Positions 2,754-61,110 of a DNA stretch of 64,000 nucleotides are shown here, in pieces; positions within the stretch are counted from its first letter, which is position 1; the number at the start of each line of letters is the position of its first letter. The stretch is taken from positions 31,615,515-31,679,514 of the forward strand of contig JAHRHZ010000018.1 of NCBI GenBank assembly GCA_024137785.1. The letters are read 5' to 3'. The position numbers and the translations under genes are program-made. Origin of the DNA: Ginglymostoma cirratum (Eukaryota). A model generated the notes under the pieces. It was given only the letters and a program-made list of their open reading frames with translations. It made no database searches and was not told the DNA's origin.

Positions 2754-2896
2754 AACAAAAACAGAAGTTGCTGGAAAAGCTCAGCAAGTCTGGCAACATC
2801 TGTGAAGAAAAAAATCAGAGTTAGCGTTTCGGGTCCGGTGACCTTTCCTCAGAACTGTTCTGAGGAAGGGTCACCGGACCCGAAATGTTAACTCTG
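2754..2896. mobile_element. Penelope-like pLTR end (family B) folded back into a 40-bp-arm palindrome with two HHR-like motifs
   Basis: Arms 2816-2855 and 2857-2896 are 37/40 reverse-complementary. The + arm reads CTGAGGA-A-GGGTC-ACCG-GACCC-GAAA-TGTT. Confidence 0.75.
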
Positions 2897-4039
2897 GAGC
2901 AGCAACAGGAAATGTGTAAGGTACTACCAGTATTCCTGGATGTACAGTCCATGCTTGGAGGGAGTTTGGAGGAACCTGTCTCCGTCATGGGTGCCAAGGT
3001 GTCTCAGGTACTTGTGCTGCTTTCCACCTTCTTGGAAAGAGGTGTCTGGGGCAACAGAAACAGTAAGCAACTCAATGTATGCTGACCTGGTCAGTAGTGT
3101 GCACACTCAGTCTGTCATTGCAAGCAAGATAAGAAAAAGCCTGGCCTTGGCCACTGACTCAGCAAGCTACAGTAAAGTGCTCTCTAGCTCTTGGCTAGAT
3201 GGACTATGCGATTAAAGGTAGGAAAGGACAGGTGGAAATGGGAGCTCGTCTCACATTGCTGTCATTTCTAATCCCTAGCACTATCCCTTCCACAGAAAGA
3301 GCTCCATATGCTACTTCTTGCCCTAATCATGACAGCCAGAGGTGGTGGCAATCTTCAGTGGGCAGATGGTGTCCATCATGGTCATCTCAGCAGTGAAAGC
3401 AAGGAAATGAGCAGTCTGCCTGTTGGAATCCATAGGGCAACATCACATGCTCGGATTAATAAGTGAAAAAGGAAGACTCCTTGGTTAATCAAAACATTAT
3501 GTTTATGAATATTTCAATGAACCAAGAATTTCATTTGAAATGACTGTTGTCTTGCAAACTCCATTGTTAACTCCTGAATTCCAAATGGACATTAGTTGTC
3601 AGGAGAATGGAATGACCAGAGATGAAGAGGAGCAAAGAATGGAACTGTGCTGGAGGAATTTTTGACTGTGAAAATGATGTGTATGATGGTTGGGGTGGAA
3701 GTGGGTTTAGCAATTGGCAAGATGGGGGTGGGCGGAGCCATATGGCTTCACACTCTTAGGTTGTCTGAAGAATACCTATCTGGCTGCCAGGTGAGCAGCT
3801 GCAGAAAAAATGGCCGCATCTTCCCCCTTCCCTGTAGTCAAGGATACAGAGTCTTCAGCATCTTTCATGTTTTACAACTCCATTTGTCTCTGCTGTGTAG
3901 CAATATGCATGGCACAACAAAACAAGAGAATTCTTTGGTGCTGGTGCACGCTGAAGGGTGCCCCAAGATCTGTCCAGATGTTCCTTCTGCTGACTGGCTC
4001 CTCTCTTACTTTCCCTTGGCATCAGTGATTGGGGTTTAG

Positions 4040-4430
4040 AAGGACAAGAGGCCTCATTAAGACATAGAAAATCCTGAAAAGGTTCAATGGAGTCAGTGCT
4101 GACAGATTAGATTCCCTGACCAATGGGAACAAACATGGGATCAGCCTTAAGACGAGGGGCCAATCATTGAGGATTGGATGAGCATTAATTACGTCACTCA
4201 AAGGATTGTGAAATTAAGGAATCCACTATTCCAGAGGATTGTGGATACTTGATCATTGAATACGTTCAAGGCTGGGCTAAATAGATTTTTGACCTTTCAG
4301 GGAATTAATGGAACTAGGGAGTGTGGCAAGAACATGGAATTAAAGACCAAGATTAGGCACAATCACATTAAATGGCAGAGTAGCCTTGATGCATCATACA
4401 ATTTACTTCTGCTCCTATTTTTTGCATTCT
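4040..4430 (+). mobile_element. CR1 LINE 3' end fragment
   Basis: Translation remnant NTFKAGLNRFL, with a 3' UTR similar to 53800-53970. Confidence 0.75.
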
Positions 4431-7129: not shown

Positions 7130-7560
7130 TGTATGGAACCTATGACTGGATGCAAGGTCAATGGCTTATCATGTTGATGCTAACCTCTACATGAGGAAGC
7201 CATGAGCTTACATGCTTCAGAGATGGCGGAATTCAGCTTGCATGAACAATATGATCACCTTCACAAAGCTATACAAGTCCTCTGGCATCTTCTCTATATA
7301 TATTCCCCTAAATTTTTTTGCAGTTTCAACAGTTTTCTTATGGTCTAACCAGAGGCCCATTATCAGAAAGGACCCAGTTCCCCGCAATTTTCTAAGAGTC
7401 CAGGATTTGGCTGTCATATCCTACATCAGCTGCCAGGAGGTATGTGTAATGTACTTGCTAGGTTGTGTTTCCAGTTCCAAATGTGAAGCCTCTCCAACCT
7501 GTCTGGGTGAAACTACACCAGTGAGGGGTATTGGTCAGATAGCTAGCAGTGCATCCTCTA
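7130..7560 (-). pseudogene. Decayed PIF/Harbinger DDE transposase C-terminal relic
   Basis: Minus-strand remnants CCTGGCAGCTG (PGS), WVLSDNGPL (compare WLLGDKGYPL) and VKVIILFMQAEFRHL (compare IEQTIGLLKMRFRCL) occur in canonical order. Confidence 0.5.
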
Positions 7561-11270: not shown

Positions 11271-11306
11271 AGTAGAGTGGTTCGCATCTGGAAGAGTAAT
11301 ATACGT

Positions 11307-11515
11307 AACAAAAACAGAAATCACTGGAGAAACACAGCAAGTCTGACAGTATCTGTGGGGAAAAAGCGGAGATAATGTCATGAGTCTTCATGATAACTTG
11401 ACAACAGACTCGAAATGCTAACTTGGCTTTCTCTCCAGAGATGCTGCCAGACCTGATGAGTTTTGCCAACAATTTCTGTCTCAGATCCCCAGCATCTGCA
11501 GTTCTCAGTTTTATT
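11307..11515. mobile_element. Tail-out inverted pair of Penelope-like pLTR ends (family B, degenerate)
   Basis: The left half AACAAAAACAGAAATCACTGGAGAAACACAGCAAGTCTGACAGTATCTGTGG is roughly reverse-complementary to the right half CCAGAGATGCTGCCAGACCTGATGAGTTTTGCCAACAATTTCTGT, which carries the CCAGCATCTGCAG tail. Confidence 0.65.
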
Positions 11516-14120: not shown

Positions 14121-14244
14121 AGAGATAGTAGGAACTGCAGATGCTGGAGAATCCGAGATAACAAGGTGTCGAGCTGGATGAACACAGCAGACCAAGCAGC
14201 ATTATAGGAGCAGGAAAGCTTGACATTAGGGGCTAGACCCTTCT
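14121..14244 (-). mobile_element. Penelope-like pLTR end (family A), short insertion
   Basis: Highly similar to the reverse complement of 40431-40554. The 5' end lies inside the HHR motif. Confidence 0.85.
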
Positions 14245-14394
14245 TTATAGCCATTTGTTGAAGTAGAATTCACCCTACAAACAGATATATGTTAACTGAA
14301 CTGAAATTTTGTTCTTGAAAGCTCAATTAAAAATTCAAATTATTTGCCTGAAAAATAAGTACAGCAATTTCAAAGAGGAAATAATCTTTTAACT

Positions 14395-15095
14395 CATCAA
14401 GGAGGTGCAAGCTTCACTGGCTGAGTCAGCATTTATTACCCATCCTAACTGCCCTTGGGAAAGTGATAGTATGCTACCTTCTTGAACTGCGATGGTCCTT
14501 GGGTTGAGAGTAGGTACACCCACAGTGCTGTTCGAGAAGGAGTGCCAGGATTTTGATCCAGAGATATTGAAGGAACCAAGTCAGGATAATGAATGGCTTG
14601 GAGACAAGCCTGCAGATATTTGTTCTCCAATGTATCTGCTGCCTTTGTCCTTCTAGATGGTAGTGTTCCTGGGTTTTGAAGGTGCTATATAAGGAATCTT
14701 GGTGAATTTCTGCGGTACAACTTGTAGATGGCACACATTGTTGCTATTGTGTGCTGGTGGGGAAATGAGTAAATGTTGTAGATTTGGTGCTGATTAAGCG
14801 GCCTGCTTTGTCAAGGAAAGTGTCAAGCTTTTTGAGTGTTGTTGGAACTGCACCCAGCCAGCCAAATAATGACTATTCCTTCACATTCTTGAGATACCTC
14901 ACAAATTGTGGTCCTGATGAAGGGCCCTCCCCCAAAACGTTGACTTTCCTCTGATGCTGCCTGACCTGCTGTGTTACCCCAGCTCCACACTGTATTGACT
15001 CTGACTTCCAGCATCTGCAGTTCTTGCTATCTCTTGTTATAGATGGTGGACAGTCTTTGGGGAATCCGGAAGTGAGTTATTCCAGCAGTACTGTA
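14395..15095 (-). mobile_element. CR1-like LINE 3' part, hosting a PLE-end insertion at 14912-15034
   Basis: Reverse complement of the 63140-63740 family. Confidence 0.8.
14912..15034 (+). mobile_element. Penelope-like pLTR end (family A variant) starting at the HHR CTGATGA
   Basis: CCTGATGAAGGG...AAAACGTTGAC...GATGCTGCCTGACCTGCTGTG...CCAGCATCTGCAGTTC. Confidence 0.75.
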
Positions 15096-20326: not shown

Positions 20327-20596
20327 ATTTACACCGTTTCTTTGCAAGCCATGGAGGAGGACAGATAAGATGCCACACCATTAGGAGTTGTGTATAGAGT
20401 AAGATTCATCCAGCAAAAGATTGCTGATTGGTTTGTGCAATTGTGACTGACTGAAGTCATCAGCCTGACAACAACTTTCTGATTAGTTTCTGTATCATTC
20501 AGTACCTGAAACCCAAAGAAAGCTACCTATTTGCTTACGCTAATTGCTACAAGCTGTTGCCTTTAACCTTAATTAGTGTACCATTCACTCTGTCCT

Positions 20597-20905
20597 CATA
20601 GAATCCCTTCAGTGTGGAAACAGGCCCTTCGGCCTTACAAGTCCACACCGACCCACACAGCATCCCACCCAGACCCATCCCCCTAATCTACACATCCCTG
20701 AATGGTACAGGCAATTTAGCATGGCCAATCCACCTAGCCTGCACATCTTTAGACTGTTGGATGAAACTGGAGCACCCAGATAAAACCCACGCAGACACGG
20801 GGAAAATGTGCAAGCTCCACACAGACAGTCACCTGAGGGCAGAATCAAACCTGGGCCCCTGGCGCTGTGAGGCAGCAGTGCTAACCACTGAGCCACCGTG
20901 CCGCC
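20597..20905 (-). mobile_element. HE1-type V-SINE, full length
   Basis: tRNA head GGCGGCACGGTGGCTCAGTGGTTAGCACTGCTGCCTCACAGCGCCAGG, V-domain TCCCCGTGTCTGCGTGGGTTT, and CR1-type tail ending GGGATTCTATG. Confidence 0.9.
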
Positions 20906-22979: not shown

Positions 22980-24307
22980 AGAGTCATAGAGATATATGGT
23001 ACGAAAACAGACCCTTTAGTCCAACATGTCCATGCTGACCAGATATCCTGAATAAGTCTAGTCCCATTTGCCAGCTTTTGGCCCATATCCCTCTAAACCC
23101 TTCCTATTCATATACCCATTTGGATGCCTTTTAAATGTTGTAATTGTACTAGCTTCCACTAGTTCCTCTGATAGCTCATTCCATACACATAGAATACAGT
23201 GTGGAAGAAGGCCATTCAGCCCATTGAATCCACACCGACACTCCGAAGAGCATCCCACCCAGATCCACCACATATCCCTGCACTTCCCATGGTTGACCCT
23301 CCTAGCCTGCATGTCCCTGGACACTATTGGCAATTTACCATGGCCAATCCACCTAACCTGCATATCTTTGAACTGCGAGAGGAATCCAGATCACCTGGAG
23401 GAAACCCACACAGACATAGGGATAACATGCAACCTCCACACAGATAGTCACCCGAGGCTGGAATCAAAACCAGATCCCTGGCACTGTGAGGCAGCAGTGC
23501 TAACCACTGAGCCATCATGCCACCTTCTGCATGAAAAAGTTGTCCCTTAGATCCCTTTTAAATGTTTCTCCTCTTACCTTAAACCTATGCTGTCTAGTTT
23601 TGGACTCCCCCACCCTGGGGAAAAGACCTTGTCTATTTACCCTATCCATGCTCCTTATGATTTTATAAATTTCTATAAGGTCTACCCTCAGCCTCTGACA
23701 CACCAGGCAAGATAGCCCCAGTCTAATCAACCTCTCCCTATAGCTCAAACCCCCCAATCTTGGCAACATCCTTGTAAATCTTTTCTCAACCCTTTCAAGT
23801 TTCAAAACATCCTACCTGTAGCAGAGAAACCAGAATTGCATGCAGTATTCCAGGAGTGGCCTAACCAATGTTCTGTACAGCCGCAACATAACTTCCCAAC
23901 TCTTATACACAATGCACTGACCAATAAAGACAAGCATACCAAATGCCTTCTTCACTATCCTATCTACCTGGGACTCCACTTTCAAGGAACTATGAACCTG
24001 CACTCCAAGGTCTCTTCATTCAGCAACACTCTCCAGGACCTTACCATTAAATGTATAAGTCCTGCCCTGATTTGCCTTTCCAAAATGCAGCACCTCACAT
24101 TTATCTAAATTAAGCTCCATCTGCCACTTCTCGGCCCATTGGCCCATCTGATTAAGATCTCGTTGTACTCTGAGATAATGTTCTTCGCTGTCCACTACTC
24201 CTCCGTTTTTAGTGTCATTTGCAAACTTACTAGCGTGTGTTTGTGTGTTCATATCCAAATCATTTATATAATTGATGAAAAGCCGTAGATCCAGCACTAA
24301 TCCTTGT
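22980..24307 (-). mobile_element. HER1-type CR1 LINE, 5'-truncated
   Basis: ORF2 remnants FINYINDLD..SKFANDTK..KCEVLHFG, VRPLLEYCMQFW and LERVEKRFTRMLP. Confidence 0.9.
23188..23522 (-). mobile_element. HE1-type V-SINE nested in the HER1-type LINE
   Basis: Same head, V-domain and tail as 20597-20905. Confidence 0.9.
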
Positions 24308-24310
24308 TCC

Positions 24311-24688
24311 AGAGATAAAAGGTACTGCAGATGCTGGAGAATCCGAGATAACAAGGTGTGGGGCTGGATGAACACAGCAGGTCAAGCAGCATCATAGGAG
24401 CAGGAAAGCTGACGTTTCTCGATGGTGTCAGGCTTTTTCGGAATGCTGTTGGAGCATCCAGGCAAATGGAGAGTATTCCATCACACTTCTGACTTCTGAC
24501 TGGTCGACAGGGTTTAAGAAGTGAGTTGTTTAATGTAGAATTCCTAGCCTCTCACCTGCTCTTGTAACCGCAGTACTTATATTGCTAGATAACAAGGTGT
24601 GGAGCTGGATGAACACAGCAGGCCATGCAGCATCATAAGAGCAGGAAAGCTTGGCCTGCTGTGTTCATCCAGCCCCACACCTTGTTAT
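24311..24688. mobile_element. Composite PLE-derived insertion: pLTR end + about 170 bp CR1-like fragment + pLTR end + inverted pLTR stub
   Basis: Bounded by the perfect 16-bp direct repeat CACTAATCCTTGTTCC (24295-24310 and 24689-24704). Confidence 0.8.
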
Positions 24689-24741
24689 CACTAATCCTTG
24701 TTCCTATCTGTTTTTATATTTTTGGCTAACTTTCTCTCATA

Positions 24742-27354: not shown

Positions 27355-27661
27355 ATGTTGAACTCCAGTCTGGGCTCATGTAGAGCTCCAGTCCAGGCCT
27401 GTGCTGAGCTCTATTCTGGGCCCGTGTAGAGCTCCAGTACAGGCCTGCATTGAGCTCCACTACAGGCCCATGCAACGCTCCAGTACAGGCCTGTGCTGAG
27501 CTCCAGTACAGGCCCACACTGAGCTCCAGTACAGGTCCATGCAGCGCTCCAGTACTGGCCCGTGCTGAGTTCCCGTACAGGCCCGTGCTGAGCTCCAGTC
27601 CGGGCCCGTGCTGAGCTCCAGTCCAGGCCCGTGCTGAGCTCCAGTACAGGCCCGTGTTGAG
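27355..27661. repeat. Minisatellite, about 13.3 copies of the 23-bp unit GTGCTGAGCTCCAGTACAGGCCC
   Basis: Direct count of units with a constant 23-bp period and no spacers. Confidence 0.95.
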
Positions 27662-30872: not shown

Positions 30873-31277
30873 CCAGTCACCTAAGCTAGTTTATTTGTTA
30901 CCAATTGTTTTATCCTACATTAAGGACTTTGCCAAAGAGCTGTTACTACTTCGTTAATTCCTTCTCCATATATTGAGTGACAAGAAGCTGCAGTTACTGA
31001 CGTGCACTTTTATCATGTCAAATGAGCTTTTCTTGCCGCATTTTGAATAACTTCAATTGATTAAAGTCACTTCAGAAAGTTTTCATGACAAGGGGAATAA
31101 AACTAAAAAGATTTATATGCCAAGATTTTGTTCAGATATCAAAACTTCACTTAAATGCTCTTCATTACTCTCATTAAGTTCATTGTGTTTTGAAATCACT
31201 TGCAAGTCTTTCAGCTTGGTCAATCAAAAAAAGTTGTCAGTGTAAACGTTGACCCAATGTAAGCTCTAATATAGTAT

Positions 31278-31380
31278 CAGAGATAAAAGGTACTGCAGAT
31301 GCTGGAGAATCCGAGATAACAAGCATGGGGCTGGATGAACACAGCAGGTCAAGCAGCATCATAGGAGCAGGAAAACTTGA
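31278..31380 (-). mobile_element. Penelope-like pLTR end (family A)
   Basis: Near-identical to the reverse complement of 40453-40555. The 5' end is within 2 nt of the predicted HHR cleavage site. Confidence 0.9.
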
Positions 31381-31570: not shown

Positions 31571-31695
31571 CTGAAGGATCTAGGCCCGAAGTGTCAAGCT
31601 TTCCTGCTCCTATGATGCTGCTTGGCCTGCTGTGTTCATCCAGCTCCACACCTTGTTATTTTGGATTCTCCAGCATCTGCAGTACCTTTTACCTC
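31571..31695 (+). mobile_element. Penelope-like pLTR end (family A)
   Basis: TGAAGGATCTAGGCCCGAAGTGTCAAGCTTTCCTGCTCC...CCAGCATCTGCAGTACCTTTT. Confidence 0.85.
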
Positions 31696-31921
31696 AGAAC
31701 CTGTAGGCTTACTTTCAAATGTTGATTCGGTGCAATTGTAGAAGTGTACCCTTGCGACATATTTCCCTCAGAGGTATGGAGTAATTACATTGGATATTGA
31801 CACCTCATTCACGCTGATGTGCTGTAAGTATTTTCAGAGAGCAAACACAGTTTACACCAACATGAAGGATCTTACAATACTGATACCATTATTGTGCCTC
31901 CTTTGTGCTCATACTTGCTTG

Positions 31922-36812: not shown

Positions 36813-37120
36813 TAGAATAGAATCCCTACAGTATGGAAGCAGGCTATTTAGCCCAACAAGTCCACACTGACTCTTCAAACAGCATCCCACCCAGGCTCAT
36901 CCCCCTACCCTATCCCTGTAACCCTGCATTTCCCATGGTTAATCCACCTAACCTGCGCATCTTTGGACTGTGGGAGGAAACCGGAGCACCTGGAGGAAAT
37001 CCACACAGACACAGGGAGAATGTGTAAACTCCACACAGTCAGGCGCCTGAGGGTGGAATTGAACCCGGGTCCCTGGCACTGTGAGGCAACAGTGCTAACT
37101 GCTGAGTCACTGTGCTGCCC
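36813..37120 (-). mobile_element. HE1-type V-SINE
   Basis: Same structure as 20597-20905. Confidence 0.9.
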
Positions 37121-37756
37121 TGAGATGTAGGTTTCACTGGCTGGTCTAACAATTATTGTCGATCCTAGTTGCCCTTGAGAAGGTGAAGGACCCATTTCTG
37201 TTAACTCTTTGCCATACGTGTTCTGTTCTGTGTGGGTGTATCCTAACCTCCCATGCATCTTCTTGGCAATACAAACCACCTACTTGATCCCAAGGAATGT
37301 GTTTCTGAAGAAAGAAATTGGGGCCAACTCCTAATGCGAGTGTAGCATCGCTTTGCAGAAAAGAAGTATCGACTTATATAACCAAATAAAGACAGAAAAA
37401 TGAATACTTGCACTGAAAACATAGGTCATCCATCTATGCCACAATCTGCAGTACTCGGACTTCTGTGTTAAAATTTTACTGTGATTTTGAAGTTCTATTA
37501 CAGTGAAGTTAAAGGCCACAGAATTGGGTTGGTACAATAATGCAACAGCTCTAAACTTATAAAATGCCAACTGAAAACTTTCAGCCACTTCCGAGAAGAT
37601 AGGCTTTGTTTATGACCAGTCTCTGGGTGAGATTCCCCAATTTGTTTCAGTTCCAGATAGAATATACCAAGCCATGAAGCTCCTGGGTGAGTTGGGGGGT
37701 GGGGTGCGGTTACATCCCTCCCCTCAGTTGGTCACAACAAGGTTAATTTGAAAAGG

Positions 37757-37887
37757 GGTAGTATGAACTGCTGATGATGGAGTATTTGAGATAACAAGGT
37801 GTAGAGCTGGATGAACACAGCAGGCCAAGCAGCATCATTGGAGCAGGAAAGCTGACGTTTCGGGTCTGGACCCTTCTTCAGAAAAAG
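37757..37887 (-). mobile_element. Penelope-like pLTR end (family A) with HHR core and its own TSD
   Basis: Sense strand reads CTGAAGA-A-GGGTC-CA-GACCC-GAAACGTC. 12-bp direct repeat AATTTGAAAAGG at 37745-37756 and 37888-37899. Confidence 0.85.
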
Positions 37888-38160
37888 AATTTGAAAAGGA
37901 TCCCTTTCTCCCAGACCCAAATAAATTTTCGTTTAAAAAGGAGCCAATTTATCCAGGTTTTGAATTAGATAAAAGAACGCTTTTATTAGTTAGCAAAAGT
38001 GAGGAGAAGTCGTAACACAACACACAACACAGATTAAAAATAAGAGATGATTTCAATAATATAAAAGTTAAGAGAAAAGACACATGGATCAGTCTCAGAG
38101 ATAACAAGGCGTGGGGCTGGATGAGCACAGCAGGCCAAGCAGCATCATAGGAGCAGGAAA

Positions 38161-38196
38161 ACTTGACGTTTCGGGCCGAGATCCTTCATCAGAAAT
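38161..38196 (-). ncRNA. Minimal type I hammerhead ribozyme motif (left pLTR, stem II mismatch)
   Basis: ATTT-CTGATGA-A-GGAT-CTCG-GCCC-GAAA-CG-TC/AAGT. Confidence 0.55.
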
Positions 38197-38248
38197 GGGG
38201 GAGGGGAAGAGGGTTCTGAAATAAATAGGGAGAGAGGGGGAGGCGGAT

Positions 38249-38348
38249 NNNNNNNNNNNNNNNNNNNNNNNNNNNNNNNNNNNNNNNNNNNNNNNNNNNN
38301 NNNNNNNNNNNNNNNNNNNNNNNNNNNNNNNNNNNNNNNNNNNNNNNN
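38249..38348. other. Assembly gap (100 N)
   Basis: Run of N characters. Confidence 1.
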
Positions 38349-38366
38349 GGTGAGAGGAAAAACAGG

Positions 38367-40040
38367 TTAGGGAGGCGGAGATGAGCTGGGCTGGTTTTGG
38401 GATGCGGTTGGGGGAGGGGAGATTTTGAAGCTTGTGAAATCCACATTGATACCATTGGGCTGCAGGGTTCCCAGGCTGAATATGATTTGCTGTTCCTGCA
38501 GCCTTCGGGTGGCATCACTGTGGCATTGCAGGAGGCCCAGGATGGACATGTCGTCTGAGGAATGGGAGGGGGAGTTGAAATGGTTCACGACTGGGAGGTG
38601 CAGTTGTTTGTTGCGAACCGAGCGCAGGTGTTCTGCAAAGCGGTCCCCGAGCCTCCGCTTGGTTTCCCCGATATAGAGGAAGCCACAACGGGTACAGCGG
38701 ATGCAGTATACCACATTGGCAGATGTGCAGGTGAACATCTGCCTGATGTGGAAAGTCTTCTTGGGGCCTGGGATTGGGGTGAGGGAGGAGGTGTGGGGGC
38801 AGGTGTAGCACTTCCTGCGGTTACAGGGAAAAGTGCTGAATGTGGTGGGGCTGGAGGGGAGTGTGGAGCGGACAAGGGAGTCGCGGAGGGAGTGGTCCCT
38901 CCGGAAGGCAGATAAGGGTGGGGAGGGAAAAATGTCTTTGGTGGTGGGGTCTGATTGCAGATGGCCGAAGTGTCGGAGGATGATGTGTTGGATCCGAAGG
39001 TTGGTGGGGTGGTATGTGAGGATGAGGGGGATTCTTCTTTGGTTATTATTGCAGGGACGAGGCGTGAGGGATGTGTTACGGGAAATGCGGGAGACACGGT
39101 CGAGGGCGTTCTCAACCATTGTGGGGGGGAAGTTGCGGTCCTTGAAGAATGAGGACATCTGAGATGTACGGGAGTGGAATGTCTCATCCTGGGAGCAGAT
39201 GCGGCGGAGGAGAAGGAATTGGGAATAGGGGATGGCATTTTTGCGGGAAGGTGGGTGGGAGGAGGTGTATTCCAGGTAGCTGTGGGAGTCAGTGGGCTTG
39301 AAATGGACATCTGTCTCTAGGTGGTTGCCCGAGATGGAGACAGAGAGGTCCAGGAAGGAGAGAGAAGTGTTAGAGATGGTCCAGGTGAACTTCAGGTTGG
39401 GGTGGAAGGTGTTGGTGAAGTGGATGAACTGTTCGACTCCTCGTGGGAGCACGAGGTGGCGCCAATGCAGTCATCAATGTAACGGAGGAAGAGGTGGGGT
39501 TTAGGGCCAGTGTAGGTACGGAAGAGAGATTGTTCCACGTAACCTACAAAGAGGCAAGCATAGCTTGGGCCCATGCGGGTACCCATGGCCACCCCCTTTG
39601 TCTGTAGGAAGTGGGAGGAATTGAAAGAGAAGTTGTTGAGGGTGAGGACGAGTTCGGCTAAGCAGATGAGGGTGTCGGTGGAGGGGGATTGGTCAGTTCT
39701 GCAGGACAGGAAGAAGCGGAGGGCCTTTAGGCCATCTGCATGGGGAATACAGGTGTATAGGGACTGGACATCCATAGTAAAAATGAGGTGTTGGGGACCA
39801 GGGAATTGGAAGTTCTGGAGGAGGTGGAGGGCGTGGGTGGTGTCACGGACGTAGGTAGGGAGTTCCTGGACCAAGGGGGTGAAAATGAAGTCTAGGTAGG
39901 TGGAGATGAGTTCGGTGGGGCAGGAGCAGGCAGAGACAATGGGTCGACCAGGGCATTCAGGTTTGTGGATTTTGGGAAGGAGATAGAAGCGGGCGGTGCG
40001 GGGTTGGGGAACGATGAGGTTGGAGGCGGTGGGTGGGATC
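38367..40040 (-). pseudogene. PLE RT-GIY-YIG ORF, N-terminally truncated, with one frameshift near 39437
   Basis: FYLLPKIHK, PGRPIVS, MDVQSLYT, GVAMGTRMGP, LRYIDD, FLDL, Cys linker CNRRKCYTC..FTC, VVYCIRC..C..YIGETKR..RF.EH. The two ORF-track frames join at HEE(L)EQ with no internal stops. Confidence 0.92.
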
Positions 40041-40422
40041 TGCAGCCTGGGAACCCTGCAGCCCAATGGTATCAATATGGATTTCACAAGCTTCAAAATC
40101 TCTCCTCCCCCAACCACATTCCAAAACCAGCCCAGCTCATCTCCACCTCCCTAACCTATTTTTCCTCTCACCTGTCCCCTCCTCCCACCTCAAGCCCCAC
40201 CCCCATCTCCTATCTACTAACATCATCCCGCCCCCTTGACCTGTCTGTCCTCCCTGGACTGACCTATCTCCTCCCTACCCCCCTACCTACACTCACCTTT
40301 ACTGGCTCCATCCCCGCCTCTTCGACTTGTCTGCCTCCTCTCCACCTATCCTCTCCTCTATCCATCCTCTATCCGCCTCCCCCTCTCTGCCTATTTATTT
40401 CAGAACCCTCTTCCCCTCCCCC

Positions 40423-40458
40423 ATTTCTGATGAAGGGTCTAGGCCCGAAACGTCAAGT
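40423..40458 (+). ncRNA. Minimal type I hammerhead ribozyme motif (right pLTR)
   Basis: CTGATGA at 40427-40433, extra A, stem II GGGT/GCCC, GAAA at 40447-40450, palindromic ACGT stem III, GUC cleavage triplet ending 40454, stem I ATTT/AAGT. Minimal HHRs in PLE pLTRs are established. Confidence 0.7.
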
Positions 40459-43400
40459 TTTCCTGCTCCTATGATGCTGCTCGGCCTGCTGTGTTCATCC
40501 AGCCCCATGCTTGTTATCTCGGATTCTCCAGCATCTGTAGTACCTTTTATCTCTGATCAGTCTCAGACATATTTATGTAGCATGGATAATTGAATATTGT
40601 GGCTGTGGTGTTGAATGTTATCAGTGTCTCTGATGTTAATAGTTGAGCAGTCAATTTCAAGAATTTTGTGTTGATTGAAATTCTTTTGTTCTAGCTACTA
40701 TCAAAGTTTGTTCTCAGGACTTGGCTGACGAACCGAAAAATATTCAACTACCTCGCCTGAGGCAATGTCATTGAATGGATCTTCAAATGATATATTGCAC
40801 CTATTGTTCCATCAACATCTCACACTGCTGAATGCACCACACCCTGATACCAAAGGCCTAAGGGCCTACTCCTGCATGCATTTATGTTCTTACATGTGAT
40901 CAAAGATTTACTTTTCAACCCACCTTTCTTCCTCATCAACTCTCCCCTTCTGTATTTTTTCCCTTCCAGGTATCCAAAATTTACCACTTGGTCAATCATT
41001 GGAGCCTTGACATTAAGGGCAAACCTCAGATGAAGAAGTACCATTATTTGATCTAATACTCAAGGCTGCTAGCTTAGATGGTAATGTTCTGTGTAAGTTG
41101 GGGGGTAGTATGGACCAAACTTTGTGAGTTATCTTCTGAGGCCACCTTCTCTCATTCTCTTCTTAGAGTGTCACGAGGGGACCAGATGGAAGCATGTCAT
41201 CTTTCCCCCTTCGCATTTCAGTGATAAAATCTCCAGCCCTATGTCTTATAGCCGAGGAAACCTGTCAGTGTTTTATATGCTGACCTATGCTTTGCATCCA
41301 ATCCTCCTCCGAAACTTGTAGCAGTTGCTGCATCTTGAATGCACCCCCGTGACAGGGCAGGCTAAGTTTAAAGAGGTCCAGGCTAGCTGTGTGCTGTGAT
41401 AATCACGAATAGGCTTGGGTGCCCCGCTGAGAGTGCAGCCGGTCAGTAGCATTCATGCTGGATCAAGGTTTGCGTCCTTCCTGTTTCTAATTACCAGACA
41501 CAGGGTGATCTCACACTGTAATTCCCTGTACCTCATATTGAACCTAATCCAATTTTCCCCTCAAAACATTCTTTGTTGTGGCTTATTTAGCCTTTATCTG
41601 TAACAATTACAAACTCAATGATTTACAACTTTTCACTGCATCAATTTGCACAAGTGGTGCAGCACTTACAGATAATCTAATTCAAGTTGCTGATTTATGC
41701 TTTACTTAAAAGTCAACATAGATGTTTCTATTCCTTGCAAAATAGCTTCTGTTTCTAGGGACTTTCCACAAATCCTTGTTAAGTGTTACTCCTTCAATAT
41801 TCATTCATGTAACAGACTAAAAATGGAAGTGCAGTAATAAGTTACAGTGTTAAGTTCTCCCAGCTGGATATGGGCATAGGTCAGTGCAATCTTGGCCTTA
41901 AAAGGAGAAGAAGTTATTTGGATTAGTTTTAAAAACCGGATATGGAGCTTTCCTGTTTGCCTTACTGTCACTTTTTTGCCTTCTTTCTTAACTGCTCTTT
42001 TCTCTGTGAACACTTGCAATGTAGTTTGGGAAATTTTCATGTACTGAGCCCAAGATGTTGCTGAGTTAACAGCTGCAGACAAACATAAATTTATTCTTCG
42101 ATATGAAATAATGAAGCAACAGATTTATCACCGATTGGCATATTATCAAGGCAGCATGTAATGATTTTCACCAGTCTACAAAAATTATTGACTAACATTA
42201 TGTAGTTTCCAACAATCTTCCCATAAACTGCAAAATATCACATGGGAAAATGTGGACAGAGCAATTGACTCTAAAACGCTGCAGAATAGTATCTTCAATG
42301 AGAATTTCCATTTGCATCATTAGGTAACAATGCAGATTTTTTTAATACCTTACAGAATGCTTGTATGTGGGAGTTATATGAATAGAAACATCTGGAACGT
42401 ATATGGTACAGTAATGCAAATCAGATTCCTTTGGCAAAAGATAGTTTTAAAATGTGCACTTGTTTTAATTTTATAACATCAGTGAGGGATTTCTCTGCTG
42501 TTATTAAAACCCCTTCATATGATGTAGAACTGCAAGGCATAAGCCAAGCTTTCAAATAGCTGGGAAAACTCTGAACAAATGTACTTCATTTGATAAATTG
42601 CTGAAAAAGATTATGGGAAATTCCTTCTCTTCCCAGCCCATCAATTTATTTTAATTCATCCCTGTCATTTGCTACTTGGGTTTCAAACACAATAAAAAAA
42701 AATGTAACTATTTTGAATCGACAGAAGCGTAGACAGACATTGCTTGTTGCTAAGAAACAAAACATACAGTGGATAGTGTTGAGCTTTTGTGTTCTTTGTT
42801 TTGGGCTCAGGTTTAAATGGAAGGAATGTCAATTTGAAATCCCTGTCTCACCACAGAAATTGACACTCTTCAGTGGTCAAGAATGATGTTGTAATTTATA
42901 AAGTTAAAGCAAAATTACCTTGCCTTTCCATGTTTGTGCCTCAAAATTGTCTGCCTTAACTGGTAATGTTATTTTAATTGAAATACAAAAACCTCTATTC
43001 AAGTATTGTTTTAAATTAACACTCTCAAGATTTCATAAAAACACAAACAGAAAATGAAATTGTTACTCGTGTGAAATTCCTCACAAAGGGATAAGTACAA
43101 GAAAATCTAATTTTTTCCAAAAGTTATTCATCTGCTAATCAAATTTCAAAGTTGGAAGTTGATTTAAAATTATTCAACCACACGACTCGGCTACTGTGTT
43201 ATCAGTTAAAAAGTAGAACAGATATTCTTTATTTTTTGTAAAAGTTGCAATTTTCTCCCATGGGTTGTTGTGAAACATAAAGATATATCCTGATCTACTG
43301 CAGGTCACGCAGTAAGAATGCAACTCATCTGTCTGCACTGCATCTTCCGACCCATAATTACCAGTTGCTGCCGGATGAACCTAAGTGGATAGGTATAACA

Positions 43401-46341: not shown

Positions 46342-46468
46342 AGTGCTGAGTTTTTGATTGATGGCCTTATTGATTGTTAAAGGCCTTGTTAACAGCCCAA
46401 TTTGCCTCATTAATATTCAGCCTCCTATCTTACCAAACTCTCCAACAAGCTAGCCATCAGGAAACATT

Positions 46469-46577
46469 CAGTTCTGAAGAAGGGCCACTGGGCTCAAAAC
46501 TGTCACCCTGTTTTCTCTTCACAGATGCTGCTGGACCTGCTGAGTTTCTCCAGAAATTTCTGGTTTGTTTGTTTCAG
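46469..46577 (+). mobile_element. Penelope-like pLTR end (family B)
   Basis: CAGTTCTGAAGAAGGGCCACTGGGCTCAAAAC...CACAGATGCTGCTGGACCTGCTGAGTTTCTCCAG. Possible 9-bp TSD CATCAGGAA at 46455 and 46579. Confidence 0.7.
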
Positions 46578-47414
46578 GCATCAGGAAGACTGGAGAAGGA
46601 AACTAAAATGAGCACCTGGTGGATTCAGCTCACTGCTTGCTTTGAATAATGTTCATTTTGGACACTGGACACTGAAGTCTCATGGCACACTCCTAGGCAC
46701 CACAGATTTTCATTGTAATGTTGCAGCAAGGACACAGTGCACTCAGAGACACAAACTCACCTCATGGATTGGACCAGGCTGCACCTCTGAGCTCTTCATT
46801 TGCTTTTTTAGTGCTCACTCATGATGAGCATACCTGGTTTTTCACAGCATCCTGTCTTACCTTTTTATTGTTTGCCCTTTCATTTCACTAATGTCTTGTG
46901 TCGCTGTTTAGTGCAGCCATATAACCAGGAATAGTTGTTAGCTGACCTCTGTCAAGTCAAAGATGATAGCCTTCACCCAAGGGCTCCCTGCACAGTGAGT
47001 CAAAAGCAGCAGCTGAGACTAGTTCAGGTCCTGCTCAGGGTGGTCAGAGTCAGGATCCCCTTCACATAAGGGGGGATGAACCATATGTTGGGCAGCCCAC
47101 CACTCATCTTGACTCTTTCTGCTCTATTGTGGGCTGTTTTCCCCAAGAAATGAGAGCAAGGCCAGTATTCAGGGAGATGAAAGTGACTGTTACAGCTGTT
47201 ACATTTGGTGCTGCTGGTGAGGTGTCCCAAGCAAGTGAGTAACTAAGCAGCATAGAGAACATTCAGCGTTAGTGCTGTCTGTGGTTGGGAGGGGTGGAAG
47301 TGACTGAGAGAAGATGTTGCATGCATTAGTGAAATTGGTAGACAAAGAGCCTTGTTGGGAGGTGGCTACAGTAGCAGAGATAGAATGAGTATGAAGCATT
47401 GGAGAGACAATGGT

Positions 47415-48965: not shown

Positions 48966-50511
48966 AAAACTTATGATCAACTTTACTACTATTCGCTTTT
49001 CATTTTCAGATCACCAGCCCATCAGCACAGACTCCAATTTGTCATCAACTAATCCTTTTTTTGGGGGATATGTGAATGTCATTATGACAGGCTACGAATA
49101 AAGCCTTGAATTTCAATGAAACTTGGAATTGAAGATCCTTTAGGAATAGGAAGAAATTCCCAATCCCCAAGATATATCTATGAAGCTTGCGTTTTTCCAA
49201 TTATAGTGACTTTGGGTGACATGACTTGAACTGCATGTAACTACAACAGTATGTTGACTCCAGGATGCATGTACAAGGCTAACTAGCATGTGCGTAGATC
49301 TGGAAAGTCCAATTCCCTTTTTACTGTGAATAAATATCCAACTGCAATAGAAAAGCACATGTTAAATAAAATTAAAATACTAACTGCTTGAAGAACTCCT
49401 TTACAGTGATATTTATGTTTAAATTCAGAAAAAAATACAGTGTTCAAATCCAAAACAGAAAGCCACTTTTGCTTTACTTTACTAGAAAACTTTTTAAAAA
49501 ATATTATCGATGCACAATGCCATTAGAGTCAGAACCATGATCGAACACACCGCTCCCTCCAAGCAAGATTTCTTTTAATATGAGCAGATGTGACATTTAC
49601 ATAAACACTTCACCTTTTTGTATATTTGGCGGCAGTTCCTAAACAAAAGAGTTACTGTGTGGAGTAAACCGCAGACACACCCTGTGAGAGTTAATCAGAC
49701 AGCCAAGCCAGTACCAAAGACACATTCTTTAAAAAAATGCCATAAAGGAAATGCATGGCTTGAAGAAAAAAGCTCCCTTCTGTTTTTACTGGAACTTTTC
49801 ATCAGCACTGTAATCCCCGAGTGGTTTGGAGTTCTGTGCCAAGCAGTTACTTCACCCCCTGCACTGTTGGTCCTTTTTCCAACCTTTCAGTCAATGTCTG
49901 AACTTATAATAAACAAAGGACTGCTGAAAGTTAGTCCACTGTGGGAAAATGGGAGGATACAACAAGTTTTGGCCACTATTGTTACTTTGTAACTTAATAC
50001 CTAGCATTTTATTCGAAAAAATGTCTTAGAATTTGTAGCGTTTCTTGTATGCCCGTGGGGATCATGCAATGACTTCCAGCAGGATTTTCCAGTATGAAAG
50101 GGAAAGTCACTCAAGGCAGAAATAATAGAGGAGTTATTTTTGAAGAAAAAGAATAAGTAAAATGTTTTGTGATTGGAATGAATATAACTTTTATTCTGCA
50201 GCATGCAGGCACATTTACTAACAGGTAATGGTGACAAGATACACTCAATGGATAAGAGGTTTGCTGGTGTACTGTGAGAATTGTGAAAACTGCAATAAAT
50301 TTTTAAAAAAACACATCGTGATGTGTAAATAATAATAACCACAGGCTGAGCTATTTAATCTCACCTCAAAACTAAGAGATTGCAAGGTTAGCTAATTCCT
50401 TTGTTTGTAGGTTCACTGTGCAGATTTGGTTTGAAACAGGAGATAGGGTGATATGGGGAGAACGAATCCTGAGTTGACATACTGGGATAAAAAAGGTGAT
50501 AAGAAATTGGC

Positions 50512-50597
50512 AAGAGTTTAGGCCCGAAACGTCAAGTTTTCCTGCTCCTATGATGCTGCTTGACCTGCTGTGTTCATCCAGCCCCATGCTTGTTATC
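50512..50597 (+). mobile_element. Penelope-like pLTR end (family A), tail-less, with its own TSD
   Basis: TAGGCCCGAAACGTCAAGTTTTCC...CCCCATGCTTGTTATC. 13-bp direct repeat ATAAGAAATTGGC at 50499-50511 and 50598-50610. Confidence 0.9.
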
Positions 50598-50705
50598 ATA
50601 AGAAATTGGCTGCCTCTTTTACATCTTTCACATTTTTTATTTTAATTGATGTGAACAATAAACAGTGTAAATGTAAATAGGCCGTGTGATGAAATTGTCG
50701 ATTTG

Positions 50706-51640: not shown

Positions 51641-51714
51641 AGAAAATTTGGGAAGAGGTGATGGTTTAGTGGTATTATCACTGGATTATTAATCCAGAAA
51701 CTCACCTAATGCTT

Positions 51715-52058
51715 GGGTGGTGCAGTGGTACAGCGGTTAGCACAGCTGCCTCACAGTGCCAGAGACTTGGGTTTACTTCTAACCTCATACAACTATCTGT
51801 GTGGAGTTTGCACGTTTTCCCCATGTCTACGTGGGTTTCTTCTGGGTATTCCGGTTTCCTCCCATAGTTTAAAGATGGATAAATTAAGTTGGTTGGCCAT
51901 GTTAACTTGCCCCATAGTGTCTAGGGATGTGAGAGGTAGGTGAGTTAGTCACACCAAATGTGGGGTTATGGGGTCTGCTATCTGTGTGGGATGCTCTTTG
52001 GAAGACTGGTGCAGATTTGATGGGCCAAATGGCCTCTACCTGTACTGTAGCGATTTTA
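51715..52058 (+). mobile_element. HE1-type V-SINE, preceded by a 5' stub of another tRNA-head SINE (about 51655-51714)
   Basis: Head, V-domain and tail as in the other HE1 copies. Confidence 0.85.
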
Positions 52059-52436
52059 TACTGTGTACATCTGTATTAGGTGTGCAATGTCATTATTAAT
52101 AAGCTTTTACTTTTGTAAATATGTTTTATATACTGTTAAATTGGCTTATGAGGTACAAACTTTGGAAGAAAATATGTTGTAATGGCTAAGCATTGCTCAA
52201 CTCTCACAAGGAACCAATGTTTGACTGCAGATAGCCTCAAACATCAGGAATCCTTAGCTGTGACCTTGAAGACCACAGCCAAGGTCTCAATGCGGACGAC
52301 ACAAAGCAAAACACAATGTGCAAGGAATGTCCTGGCCTGCGTACATTATTCCATTTTTACACCCAATTGAGTCAGTGTATGGAATCAGTGATGATTAAAT
52401 ACATCTTTGCAGAGAAGTATTCACTCTATGTATTAG

Positions 52437-53974
52437 TTTTTCAAAGGAGATAGCTGAAGAGATAGTGGATGCATTAGTGGTGATCTTTCAGGAATCGCTA
52501 GAGTTAGGAAGGGTCCCAGAGGACTGGAAAATTGCTAACATGATACCTCTGTTTAAAGAGGGAGTAAGGCAAAAGATGGAAAATTACAGGCTGATTAGCC
52601 TAACCTCGGTCGTGGGTAAGATTTTGGAGTCCTTTGTGAAGGATGAGATTTCTCAATTCTTAGAAGTTCACAGTAAAATCGGGCAAAGTCAGCACGGCTT
52701 CATCAAGGGGAAGTCATGCCTGACAAATCTGTTAGAATTCTTTGAGGAAGTAATGATCAGGTTAGACCAGGGACAGCCAATGGATGCTATCTACCTGAAT
52801 TCAAGAAGGTCTTTGACAAGGTACTGCACAGGAGGCGGCTGAGTATGGTAAGGGCCCATGGTGTTAGAGGCAAGGTGCTAGCTTGGATAGGAGATTGGCT
52901 GTCTGGCATAAAGCAGAGAGTGGGGTTAAAAGGGCCTTTCTCAGGATAACAGCCGATGACAAGTGGGGTTCTGCAAGGGTCAGTGTTGGGACCACACCTT
53001 TATATATTAATGATCTAGATGAAGGAACTGAGGGCATTCTGGCTGTTAGCAGACAACACAAAGATAGGTAGAGGTACAGGTAGTACTGAAAATGTGGGGA
53101 GGCTGCAGAAGGATTTGGACAGGTCAGGAAAGTGGGCAAAGAAGTGGCAGAAGGAGTAAACATGGGCAAGTGTGAGGTCATGCACTTTGGTAAGGAGAAT
53201 AGAAGCATGGACTATTTTCTAAATGGAGAGAAAATTCAGATGTCTGAAGTGCAAAGAGACTTGGGAGTTCTAGCCCAGGATTATCTCAAGGTAAACTTGC
53301 AGGTTGAGTCAGTGGTTAGGAAGGCTAATGCAACTATGGCATTTATTTTTAGAGGACTTGAATATAAAAGCAGGAATGTACTTCTGAGGCTCTATAAGGC
53401 TCTGGTCAGGCCACATTTGAAGTATTGTGCGCAGTTTTGGGCCCCATATCTCAGGAAAGATGTATTGTCCCTGGAGTGGGTTCAGAGGAGGCTCATGAGA
53501 ATGGTGCCAGGAATGAAAAGCTTAACATATGAGGAATGTCTGAGGACTCTGTGTCTATACTCGATAGAGGTTAGAAGTATGAGCAGGGATCTAATTGAAA
53601 CTTACAGAATACTGAATGGCCTGGACAGAGTGGATGTTGGGAAGATGGTTCCATTGATAGGAGACACTAGGACCCAAAGGCACAGCCTTAGAGTCAAGGG
53701 AAGACCTTTTAGAACGGAGATAAGGAGAAGCTTCTTCAGCTACACAGTGGTGAATCTATGGAATTCACTACCACAGAAGGCTGCAGAAGCCAGATCATTG
53801 AGTACATTTAAGACGGAGATAGATAGGTTCTTGATTGTCAAGGGGTTCAAGAGTGACAGAGAGAAAGCGGGAGAATGGGGTTTTGAGAAACCTATCAGCC
53901 ATGATTGAATGGCGGAGCAGACTTGATGGGCTGAATGGCCTAATTTCTGCTCCTATGTCTTATGGTCTTATGGT
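52437..53974 (+). mobile_element. CR1 LINE, RT to 3' end, frameshifted
   Basis: VPEDWKIAN..PLFK..NYRLISLTSVVGKILE..QHGF.KGKSCLTNLLEFFEE; KCEVMHFG..VRPHLKYCAQFWAP..VVNLWNSLP; tail (TCTTATGG)n. Confidence 0.92.
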
Positions 53975-56389: not shown

Positions 56390-56900
56390 TTCCCACCACC
56401 ACCCCTCCCCAAAATTTTCACAATGACATCCCACTTTACTAACTATAATTGTCTCCCGTACCATTGGACATTTCTTCAGAGACTCAGTGCCTTTAAGACC
56501 ATGCCCAGGCTTGTTTTCCCAGGCCTCAATGGACTGCCCAATAAATCCCCTAACATTATTGACCAAACTCCCATGACTGTCCATGACCCACCCCTGGATT
56601 GACTTGACAGGACAGACCTGACTGACCACAGCCAACCGTGAGACTGATGTCTCAGCAGCACTGTTACTGACCTACCTATAAATCCCAGACTGCTTGCATT
56701 TGATTGTAGCACTAAGAACACAAATCCTGGACTCATGTAGGACAAAGTGGCTGAATGACTGAGACCAGACACCCTGTGAGTTGGAAAAGGATACAGAGGC
56801 ACACTCCATGTTTGAAGTTCTGCAGTTAGTTGTGCTGTTAAGTAGATTCCATGTAGGGAACTCAGTAAGGACAGTTGGACTGCTCTGCACTGTCAGAACT
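56390..56900 (-). pseudogene. Very degenerate Harbinger transposase relic
   Basis: FSNSQGVWSQS (compare F.NRKGFHSLN) and SHG..VRGFIGQSIE..SLKKCP..IIV..CHCEN (compare SH..TR..IEQTIG..LQY.P..IIV.CC.LHN) in the correct order. Confidence 0.35.
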
Positions 56901-58817: not shown

Positions 58818-59125
58818 GGGGCAGCACAGTGGCACATTGGTTAACACTGCTGCCTCACAACTCCAGGGACCCGGGTTTATTTCCAGCCTCGGGCAACTGT
58901 CTGTATGGAATTTGCACATTCTCACTGTGTCTGCATGGGTTTGCTCTGGTTTCCTCCAACAGCCCAAAGATGTGCCAGTTAGGTGGATTGGCCATGCTAA
59001 ATAGTGTCTAGGGTGGGAAATGCAGGGATAGGGTAAGGGGTGGGTCTGGGTGGAATGCTTTTTGGAGGGTTGGTGTGGACTCAATGGGCTGAATAGCCTG
59101 CTTCCACACTGTAGGGATTCTATGA
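58818..59125 (+). mobile_element. HE1-type V-SINE
   Basis: Full head, V-domain and GTAGGGATTCTATG end. Confidence 0.9.
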
Positions 59126-61030
59126 AGTCATGGAAGTAAATATGCAAGAGGCTACAGGACGATTTTGGAATACTCTATATTTGTGTAAATAAAAAGTGTG
59201 CATGGTGCGTTAAGTTCACTCTCAACCTGATGTACATTCACAGAGGCAACATATGAAAGTATTTGAGCAACCTTTTAGTTCTTTCTCACACGTGCATGCA
59301 TTTCAATAGGGCAGGTTAGGCTTTCCAGTTGGCACTGAACTAAGTTCCTTCTCTCACCAAACAAAAAACAAATGCTTCAAGCTATACCCACAATGCATTT
59401 TTCTTAGACAACATATGCTGTATGCTTATTGACTCATGCACAAATTGAAACATGGGGTGGATTTTATTGCCCCCTGGGAGAGGGTGTCAGGAGGCCCAGC
59501 AGCCATGTGCCAACAAGGGCTCTTCAGTGTTAAATCAGTGGTGTTGATGGGACAAGAGAAATGCCAGTTGTTTGATTGGCTAGCAGGTTGCAAATGCAAG
59601 GACTTCATTCCCAAACTAGGATGAAGGGATGCTGTGGACAGATGGTGTGGGTGCTCGGCTGGTGAGGGTAGAGACATGAATAGAGTTACTTATTAAACAA
59701 TTGTGGAGTGAGCTGGCCAAGCAGGGGCAGGCTTACCCCTAACATTTACACCAGGGCAGGTTGACGCAAAGCTGAACAAAAAAAATCTAACCCATGGGAT
59801 GGGGTATCACTTCATCTTCTCTTCAGATTCTAGTGCCCATTTCCTTTGCGTTTTCTTACAGGGAAAGCCAGACATATGAGTCTGCCCGCAGATGTACCAC
59901 AAATTTCCCAGCACCCTGTCTGTAAATCACAAAAAGGCATCCACATTAGGAATTCTGGGTTTGTAGTTCATTGAGGTAGCATAGTAGGGTTCATGGTAGA
60001 GGTCTTCCTCGTTTGAGCTAATACATCTTTTAATTTTTATTCTTTCTGAATTCACTTACTCTGAATGTCATCATGCACACTCTGCTTGAAGAAGTATTTT
60101 GCTGCCAGCATTCTAACATATGTTCTTTCTGTTTACATAGGCAGCCAGGAAGGCCCAGAAGCAGATGGCAGTGATGAGACCAACACCTCTCATCATCCTG
60201 CGTTACTTATTCCAACTGCTACAACTATCAGCACATGTACTTGCAATCTGTGAGATTTCAGTAATGGATTTTAGGGATGAGCACCAGGTAAAACAATGAC
60301 CATGAGTAAGTGGAAGCAGGTGGACTGGAATGAGCTGGATGGAAAGAAGAAAAACTCACACCCTAACAAATGATCCATTTAAGAACTTGTCTTCTGTCTC
60401 TCTCTCGATCCCCTCTCCAGAATTGGGGAAATTTAACTGAGACAACACCATGCAACTGGTCAATCCTGATCCTACTGTAAATGACCTCATCCTCACTGCC
60501 AATAAAACTGCGTCCAATTCTTCTTTGTCCTATCTTGGAAAAGCAAATTCTCTTATAATCCTAATTATTCCTCTACCTGATATTAGATAATACACGCCAG
60601 GAATAAAAGCTGCAAACTTATTAGTTTGTATTGCTCACTGTTTTACTAAGTCACTGCAGAACATACATCACACACAAAAAGACATTGTTGATTGCAGTAA
60701 CAATTCTTTAATTGTGAAAGAATATACCTTTTCGGATCAAGTAGAGCACTGAGTTCCTATATACCAACAAAGGTAAGATCTATTGGTCACTGTAGTAGTG
60801 GTGGAGAAAAAAAGAATGTACATAATAGATAATAATTTGTTATGGCAGGCCATCTAATGATGTCTGTTGTTAATTAGTCATGCCCTTGTACATTAAGTTT
60901 TTACAAGGTATGTTGCTAAAAGTGCAAAATTCTAATGTCACAGCAAGGGAAATTGGGTATCTGGAACTTGTGCCAACAATGCAAACAACTGTATATTTCA
61001 GATTGAAGGATTATGACACTAAACGCATTT

Positions 61031-61110
61031 TGGACTCAAAGCACTAAGTCTCTTTCTCCGTCCGCAGATGCTACCAGACCTGCTGAGTTTCTTTGGCACT
61101 TTCTATTTTT
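61031..61110 (+). mobile_element. Degenerate Penelope-like pLTR end (family B)
   Basis: GCAGATGCTACCAGACCTGCTGAGTTTCTTTGGCACTTTCTATTTTT. Confidence 0.6.

Follow-up and report, generated by a model that had tools for sequence, protein, structure and literature searches.

Short terminal pieces of a Penelope-like element in Ginglymostoma cirratum and their common 5' boundary beside a hammerhead motif

Penelope-like insertions in the window

The stretch analysed here comprises 64,000 nucleotides of Ginglymostoma cirratum (assembly GCA_024137785.1, contig JAHRHZ010000018.1, positions 31,615,515 to 31,679,514, forward strand; in the following "the window") and carries, besides one long insertion of a Penelope-like element (PLE), a number of short insertions which consist only of the terminus of its pseudo-long terminal repeat (pLTR) with a minimal hammerhead ribozyme (HHR) motif. 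An original prediction, made from the sequence alone, had listed eleven such spots as separate insertions and candidate non-autonomous mini-elements. All eleven carry the pLTR terminus of one of two PLE families, here termed family 1 and family 2. The listing as separate entries holds in so far as the loci exist, but 24311 and 24652 are parts of one three-arm insertion, and 2754 and 11307 are inverted pairs (Table 1). The three target-site duplications (TSDs) already claimed proved to be exact (12 bp at 37745/37888, 13 bp at 50499/50598 and 16 bp at 24295/24689). One further TSD of 9 bp was found at 46455/46579 and one of 12 bp at 38087/40555 around the long copy, while 7 of the 12 loci tested in the window gave 7 bp or less.

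All breakpoint positions were mapped on the pLTR arm at 40043-40555, which served as reference. On this arm the 5' ends of the family-1 arms in the window lie at 40424, 40427, 40431, 40432, 40433, 40447, 40453, 40454 and 40479, that is, five of the nine short arms start at 40424-40433, two at 40453-40454 and two elsewhere. Most of these ends fall within the span of about 40 nt around the HHR to which they had been assigned, and 40479 lies outside it. Of the two cases near the predicted cut site, one, at 24652, coincides with the middle of an inverted junction at the palindrome AAGCTT.

The long insertion consists of a minus-strand, 5'-truncated copy head to head with an inverted pLTR arm, both inside one TSD. 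It shows the features by which endonuclease-bearing (EN+) PLEs are defined (PMC8557442): a reverse transcriptase (RT) followed by a C-terminal GIY-YIG endonuclease that has two cysteines between its motifs and histidines further downstream, direct or inverted pLTRs with an optional tail and a TSD, and a minimal HHR motif in the pLTR. A CX2-5CxxC linker between RT and endonuclease, common to the Neptune and Nematis clades, is present as CNRRKCYTC. A homologue search with the RT of the element gave no clade-named proteins among the best 120 of 704 matches, and the closest named relatives among these 120 derive from the cartilaginous fishes Chiloscyllium, Mobula, Stegostoma and Rhincodon (71-89% identity). 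Judged by these sequence features, the parent is probably an autonomous-type, Neptune-like PLE. Near-full-length copies of family 1 measure about 3.8 kb and carry the HHR-plus-tail unit at both ends, the 5' unit preceding the open reading frame (ORF); frameshifts or stops were present in 13 of 13 copies examined. Family 2 also has long copies, with a pyrimidine-rich untranslated region (UTR) and endonuclease-coding sequence that is 44-60% identical to that of family 1 over the matched stretches.

Table 1. Penelope-like insertions and motifs of the window (positions in the window; TSD, target-site duplication)
Feature	Position	Strand	Remarks
Family-2 head-to-head pair, joined just before the HHR core	2754-2896	-	TSD not found
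Old family-2 head-to-head pair	11307-11503	.	TSD not found
Family-1 short arm from about 40432, long end	14121-14245	-	TSD not found
Old family-1 short arm from about 40427	14913-15035	+	TSD not found
One complex insertion: arm from 40447, 168 foreign bases, inverted arms from 40454 and 40479	24295-24704	.	16-bp TSD
Family-1 arm from 40453, adjoining the predicted cut	31276-31380	-	6-bp flank repeat only
Family-1 arm from 40431	31572-31698	+	TSD not found
Family-1 solo arm from 40424	37745-37899	-	12-bp TSD
5'-truncated long family-1 PLE copy	38095-40040	-	RT, zinc-finger linker, GIY-YIG, 3' UTR, HHR, short end; N gap 38250-38348
Frame with RT thumb, CX4CX2C linker and GIY-YIG endonuclease with two cysteines between motifs	38367-39470	-	PF01541, E 1.8e-5
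RT-coding part with MDVQSLY and YIDD motifs	39392-40040	-	RVT_1, E 6.9e-6, under curated cut-off; frameshift before next frame
Inverted pLTR arm of the long insertion, long (tail) end; reference arm	40043-40555	+	95% identical to 38095-38478; 12-bp TSD 38087/40555
TATA-like box, 31 nt before the initiator-like A, outside the short units	40392-40398	+	At this offset in 26/36 UTR-bearing copies; putative function
Initiator-like motif, A at 40423, equal to the 5' strand of HHR helix I; fixed boundary and candidate RNA start	40421-40427	+	28/68 arms end at 40421-40425
Minimal type I hammerhead, predicted cut 40454/40455	40423-40458	+	Core at 40427; cleavage predicted from sequence
Two 3' ends, about 40516-40523 and 40553-40555, bounding a 35-nt tail	40516-40555	+	Bimodal ends; putative RT start sites by analogy to PMC11167929
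Family-2 solo arm from 5 nt before the HHR core	46455-46587	+	9-bp TSD
Family-1 solo arm from 40433, short end	50499-50610	+	13-bp TSD
Old family-2 fragment from about 20 nt inside the HHR	61031-61110	+	TSD not found

The 5' ends and junctions of the short copies

For the breakpoint statistics a grid sample of the genome was used instead of genome searches limited to their 40 best-scored matches. From 13 large contigs it took 160 stretches, each of 10 kb, with placement on a grid for the first 100; 52 of the 160 were wholly N, and 1,056,566 letters of the 4.36-Gb genome were left. The sample is systematic, not random, because the last 60 stretches were placed beside letter-bearing ones. We obtained 136 arms with the 3' part; in 28 of them the 5' end was censored, either by an N gap or because the arm ran past the start of the reference. 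Six arms were dropped by a loose family-2 motif, two perhaps as false flags.

Within family 1, 49 of the 89 arms at risk stop at 40419-40433, a rate that exceeds the downstream one by a factor of 12.3 and the upstream one by a factor of 12.1 (p about 1e-24, for an interval chosen after the first part of the sample and with arms of one insertion that are not independent of each other). This rejects a smooth truncation profile. The tighter interval of 40421-40425 takes up 28 of 68 arms at risk. The peak is kept in arms joined straight to flanking DNA (30/60) and in young copies of at least 88% identity (15/30). At the same offsets, 43 of 61 family-2 arms stop, with rate ratios of 7.9 and 16.8, and the boundary lies about 5 nt before the HHR core in both families. 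A boundary at the HHR had been foreseen, and an excess does exist at its 5' edge, but it neither extends across the HHR nor falls on the GTC/AAG cleavage site: only one of 104 arms at risk stops at the predicted cut 40454/40455, and a separate test revealed no excess of ends there (p 0.93), contrary to the expectation of RNA ends at this position. The impression that no copy extends into the UTR was an effect of selection, as 37 of the 89 sampled arms, and likewise the long copy of the window, run past the 5' edge of the HHR. The boundary can also be seen in complete elements: among 30 loci picked for an ORF start, ten 5' units read through from the ORF reach the HHR edge, eight of which stop at 40422-40428 and two continue into the UTR.

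TSDs of at least 9 bp flank 8 of 20 solo copies, compared with 3 of 380 mismatched pairs, so that the copies are dispersed in the manner of short interspersed elements (SINEs). A comparison of 30 flanks yielded just two weak matches of 23-24 nt. With their TSDs and unrelated flanks the copies are independent insertions, as had been claimed. The short pieces are real insertions of the end of a Penelope-type element, and about half of the copies begin at one spot. The 92 arms per 1.06 Mb would correspond to roughly 380,000 such arms genome-wide, a rough figure from a non-random sample.

At the boundary three types of junction occur. Thirty of the 52 peak arms join flanking DNA (a few of these are short inversions), 19 join an inverted arm and three join element sequence in sense orientation. 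Inverted neighbours invariably pair one long with one short 3' end (25/25 classifiable cases, seven more being unclassed; p 2e-8, or 4e-7 for 21 pairs if the four that are perhaps not true partners are left out). That a tail is present at one end only has already been described for PLEs (PMC8557442). Over all loci gathered, there are 22 junctions at which a segment of the ORF directly adjoins a unit with its start at 40420-40428, frequently by way of some A bases plus G or of 1-5 shared bases; two loci are counted twice in this number, and loci of this type were favoured by the search. Between linked arms of one insertion there are differences at 0.5 diagnostic sites, compared with 2.7 after shuffling (22 hand-picked pairs, 0 of 5000).

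Some further observations concern these junctions. At loci L027, L065, L184 and L228 the 5' junction contains one or more additional copies of the initial 4-13 bases of the unit, a pattern resembling realignment at a template end. On the ORF side, the same jump points are used in different loci; they lie about 320, 354, 430 and 460 nt beyond the tail, usually behind CA or TA (L201, L202, L216; L207, L209, L222; L214, L224; L211, L221, L228), and possibly represent preferred RNA 3' ends or abundant short transcripts. Between the 168 non-PLE bases at 24419-24586, which lie between PLE arms within the 16-bp TSD, and window positions 63123-63277 there is a similarity of about 68%; the foreign bases possibly go back to a template jump to a foreign RNA. 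Two sub-threshold Rfam matches to miRNAs, below the gathering scores, fall on fold-back PLE pairs (2816-2896 and 24593-24684), and hairpins of this kind may enter small-RNA pathways. Between inverted arms there are often assembly gaps of about 400 N (L108, L169, L183, L199, L200, L212, L221), so that inverted insertions are probably under-resolved in this assembly.

Probable run-off copying and its alternatives

The sequence around the boundary combines the HHR with promoter-like motifs. In the HHR core, the letters CUGAnGA and AAA do not vary among the 18 copies aligned; pairing reaches 93% in helix II and 80% in helix I, which has 4 bp. Covariation did not exceed that of shuffles (109 of 500), an Rfam scan gave no hammerhead match at E<=1, and single-strand folding of the isolated motif (z -0.03) and of the unit was no better than that of shuffles. 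TATA and initiator consensus patterns were the textbook ones. Among 36 HHR copies preceded by pyrimidine-rich DNA, 34 have the initiator-like A at -4 from the HHR core; these 36 UTR-bearing copies are mostly related family-1 copies and include two chimeras. In family 2, whose UTR is different, TATAAA or TATATA precedes the corresponding A by 29 nt. A rotifer pLTR has likewise been noted to contain a TATA plus initiator pair (PMC3846280), and the transcription start site of Penelope lies within the pLTR (PMC2377424). A splice acceptor as origin of the boundary was rejected: AG is absent directly upstream, the nearest one being about 20 nt away.

We consider it probable (roughly 0.6) that the short copies are dead-end run-off products, for which the RT copied just the first 98 or 134 bases of the element RNA. 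A TATA/initiator promoter in the pLTR would start the RNA at about 40422-40423. After nicking the target DNA the protein would begin cDNA synthesis internally, at either tail site of the 5' unit, and the RT would run off the RNA 5' end after 98 or 134 nt. The cDNA could then have three fates: (a) it is sealed to the target, giving a solo copy with a TSD; (b) it is linked to a second cDNA, started from the opposite nick at the remaining tail site, which yields a head-to-head pair whose ends are one long and one short; (c) it moves to another position of the RNA, giving an ORF-unit chimera or, should it settle on the 3' repeat, a seamless pLTR. This last transfer, by which a pLTR would be rebuilt together with its TATA-like box, is the boldest step of the scheme and the one with the least support. 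Short copies are devoid of the TATA-like box and are therefore predicted not to spread themselves. In favour of run-off copying are the sharp peak, which is kept in young copies, in arms joined straight to flanking DNA and at the same offset in family 2, the initiator-like A with its AT-rich box upstream in both families, the 5' units that stop at the boundary, the ORF-unit junctions, the pairing of long with short ends and the absence of a separate lineage of short copies. The reading also finds a parallel in the Poseidon element of Anolis, whose RT in vitro starts internally at two sites, which flank the tail at the pLTR-ORF junction on the downstream side of the HHR, and extends both strands; the product length follows the RNA 5' end, and HHR cleavage is not needed (PMC11167929).

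Several points weigh against run-off copying. The in vitro support comes from the Poseidon clade and not from that of the present element, and the RNA 5' end at 40422-40423 is deduced from the motif and the boundary positions. The initiator-like motif is loose, with matches also at -30 in 25 of 36 copies, and it overlaps helix I of the HHR, so that its position cannot tell an RNA start from a stall. The commonest first base is C40422 and not the initiator A. In the planned test for a cap-derived G, an extra G was found in 19 of 46 against 28 of 92 cases, which is not significant (p 0.14); a post hoc subset with starts at 40421-40423 gave 15 of 25 (p 0.007), or 13 of 22 (p 0.013) with same-locus repeats collapsed, and is suggestive. 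The 5' and 3' units of 12 near-full-length copies, several of them with little overlap, did not resemble each other significantly more than shuffled pairs do (p 0.18), and one haplotype occurs in six short and no long copies. Finally, neither read starts nor read ends pile up in the poly(A) RNA run X18, which is unstranded and dominated by embedded copies and, for these reasons, cannot place the RNA start.

In X18 the unit is covered about ten times deeper than the UTR and exceeds the ORF start by more still. Between 84 and 87% of the mapped reads continue into unlike sequence, as is expected of copies embedded in other transcripts, and read joints fall at the fixed 5' boundary, in family 2 too. 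At the ORF position L229:2146, beyond which the depth drops, 472 and 118 reads make a join through AGAAAA to 1680 or 1473 upstream. A second run, X19, contributed 19 reads only.

Run-off may be part of a wider scheme, which we put forward tentatively and regard as possible rather than probable. PLEs would replicate by a target-primed strong-stop reaction with a start in the 5' unit, run-off at the capped RNA start and transfer to the 3' repeat, by which the pLTR and its TATA box would be rebuilt; the short copies, inverted pairs and ORF chimeras, which number several hundred thousand in this genome, would then be failed or misdirected transfers. How PLEs rebuild the pLTR has been stated as an open question (PMC2377424), and strong-stop transfer, if true, would supply the missing mechanism. 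Together, the boundary at a promoter-like site, the strict long-plus-short pairing and the frequent template jumps lead to a precise prediction, namely an RNA start at 40422-40423.

The strongest competitor, in our view unlikely yet live, retains from the original prediction the option of an RT stop at the HHR. In this case reverse transcription would begin at the 3' tail, and the enzyme would stall or fall off at the 5' edge of a folded or protein-bound HHR serving as a template boundary; the autonomous element would again have produced the copies as by-products. The coincidence of the boundary with the 5' strand of helix I in both families agrees with this, as do the similar stop rates of 5' units and of all arms (8/10 and 49/89) and the repetition of the first few bases of the unit at some junctions (L027, L065, L184). 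A stall has to contend, however, with the 37 of 89 arms that pass the point and with the short, incompletely paired helix I of a motif that in isolation folds like its shuffles; it leaves the TATA-like boxes at promoter spacing in two diverged UTRs unexplained, and in the anole system the product length followed the RNA 5' end and was unchanged in HHR mutants (PMC11167929).

A ribozyme-cut small RNA or a self-propagating family of the SINE or retrozyme type, as first proposed for these copies, is very improbable. Its proponents could point to the TSDs of the solo copies, to the two window arms starting at 40453-40454, to the haplotype with six short and no long copies and to the derivation of animal retrozymes from pLTRs (bioRxiv 10.64898/2026.07.22.740005). 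However, cleavage at the HHR does not define the unit ends (1/104), and since there is no excess at the cut site and the short units keep the catalytic core upstream of it, a ribozyme-cut small RNA is unsupported. A lineage apart from the autonomous partner was not found either: short and long arms have leading haplotypes in common (5 short/8 long; 3/3), the nearest neighbour is of the same class in 0.507 of cases against 0.499 after shuffling (p 0.44; 40 short and 31 long arms of the grid sample; p 0.17 over all loci), and the single-base deletion marking the haplotype of six short copies occurs in long copies too. Apart from the two weak matches, the 30 flanks compared are not shared, and among 96 HHR cores there were four same-strand neighbour pairs within 1 kb and no longer or multi-unit arrays of the kind expected of tandem units each with an HHR. 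A simple pattern search detected no Pol III A or B box inside the unit, and the TATA-like box lies outside it. Rather than a new mobile family, the short copies are by-products of an element of known kind.

Equally remote is an antisense template that primes itself and thereby makes head-to-head palindromes, a model set out for rotifer PLEs (PMC3846280). It would suit the 19 of 52 peak arms that are joined to an inversion and the frequent palindromic head-to-head junctions, but it does not readily give TSD-flanked solo copies or sense chimeras of ORF and unit with the same boundary, and the in vitro data show a sense template (PMC11167929). An alignment artefact, by which homology would merely end at an HHR that is more conserved than the diverged UTRs upstream of it, is refuted by the peak among copies at least 88% identical, by copies of 73-80% identity that still align through the UTR, and by flanks that are unrelated to each other and carry TSDs.

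Comparison with known systems and other repeats of the window

With EN+ PLEs that form complex insertions the present system shares the parent with RT and C-terminal GIY-YIG, the inverted arms, the tail on one arm, the TSDs and the HHR in the pLTR; these insertions have been described as a pLTR with an adjacent inverted, 5'-truncated copy and a tail of 30-40 bp at one end (PMC8557442), and solo pLTRs are known as well (PMC3846280). In contrast to the variable 5' truncation described for them in the available text, about half of the arms here have a common 5' boundary, and the unit is joined to many ORF positions. The Anolis Poseidon element belongs to another clade, and the available part of its account mentions neither short genomic run-off copies nor template jumps (PMC11167929); its supplements map the ends of genomic copies and may bear on the novelty of the boundary. 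Animal non-LTR retrozymes are likewise short, non-coding and related to pLTRs and carry a type I HHR (PMC7229834; bioRxiv 10.64898/2026.07.22.740005). They consist of tandem repeats processed between the HHRs to linear and circular RNA, unlike the present units, which are solo or inverted, have the minimal HHR at their 5' end and are not bounded by the cut site.

In LTR elements, minus-strand strong-stop DNA is the short first cDNA made from an internal start near the RNA 5' end, followed by strand transfer. The proposed reaction would differ in that nicked target DNA instead of a tRNA presumably primes it and in that the jumps lead mostly to non-homologous sites; in contrast to LTR elements, a domain search of the window detected no RNase H or integrase domain. 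A literature search, mostly without subscription papers and supplements, found no title that deals, for PLEs, with a strong-stop model or with a fixed 5' boundary.

The short copies are remains of a retrotransposon class already known, but the reaction is recorded in their ends. The function of the HHR in PLEs has been called unclear (PMC8557442). Minimal HHRs are mostly scattered single motifs (PMC4209133), which may be so because the commonest product ends just after the whole HHR has been copied.

Other repeats of the window comprise a dispersed repeat of about 310 bp and thus SINE-like size, whose copies are 70-78% alike (20596-20905, 23187-23524, 36817-37120, 51723-52035 and 58819-59125), and fragments of another retroelement at 52399-53908, possibly CR1-like, with an RVT_1 match at 52399-52842. 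A degenerate tandem repeat is located at 27356-27661.

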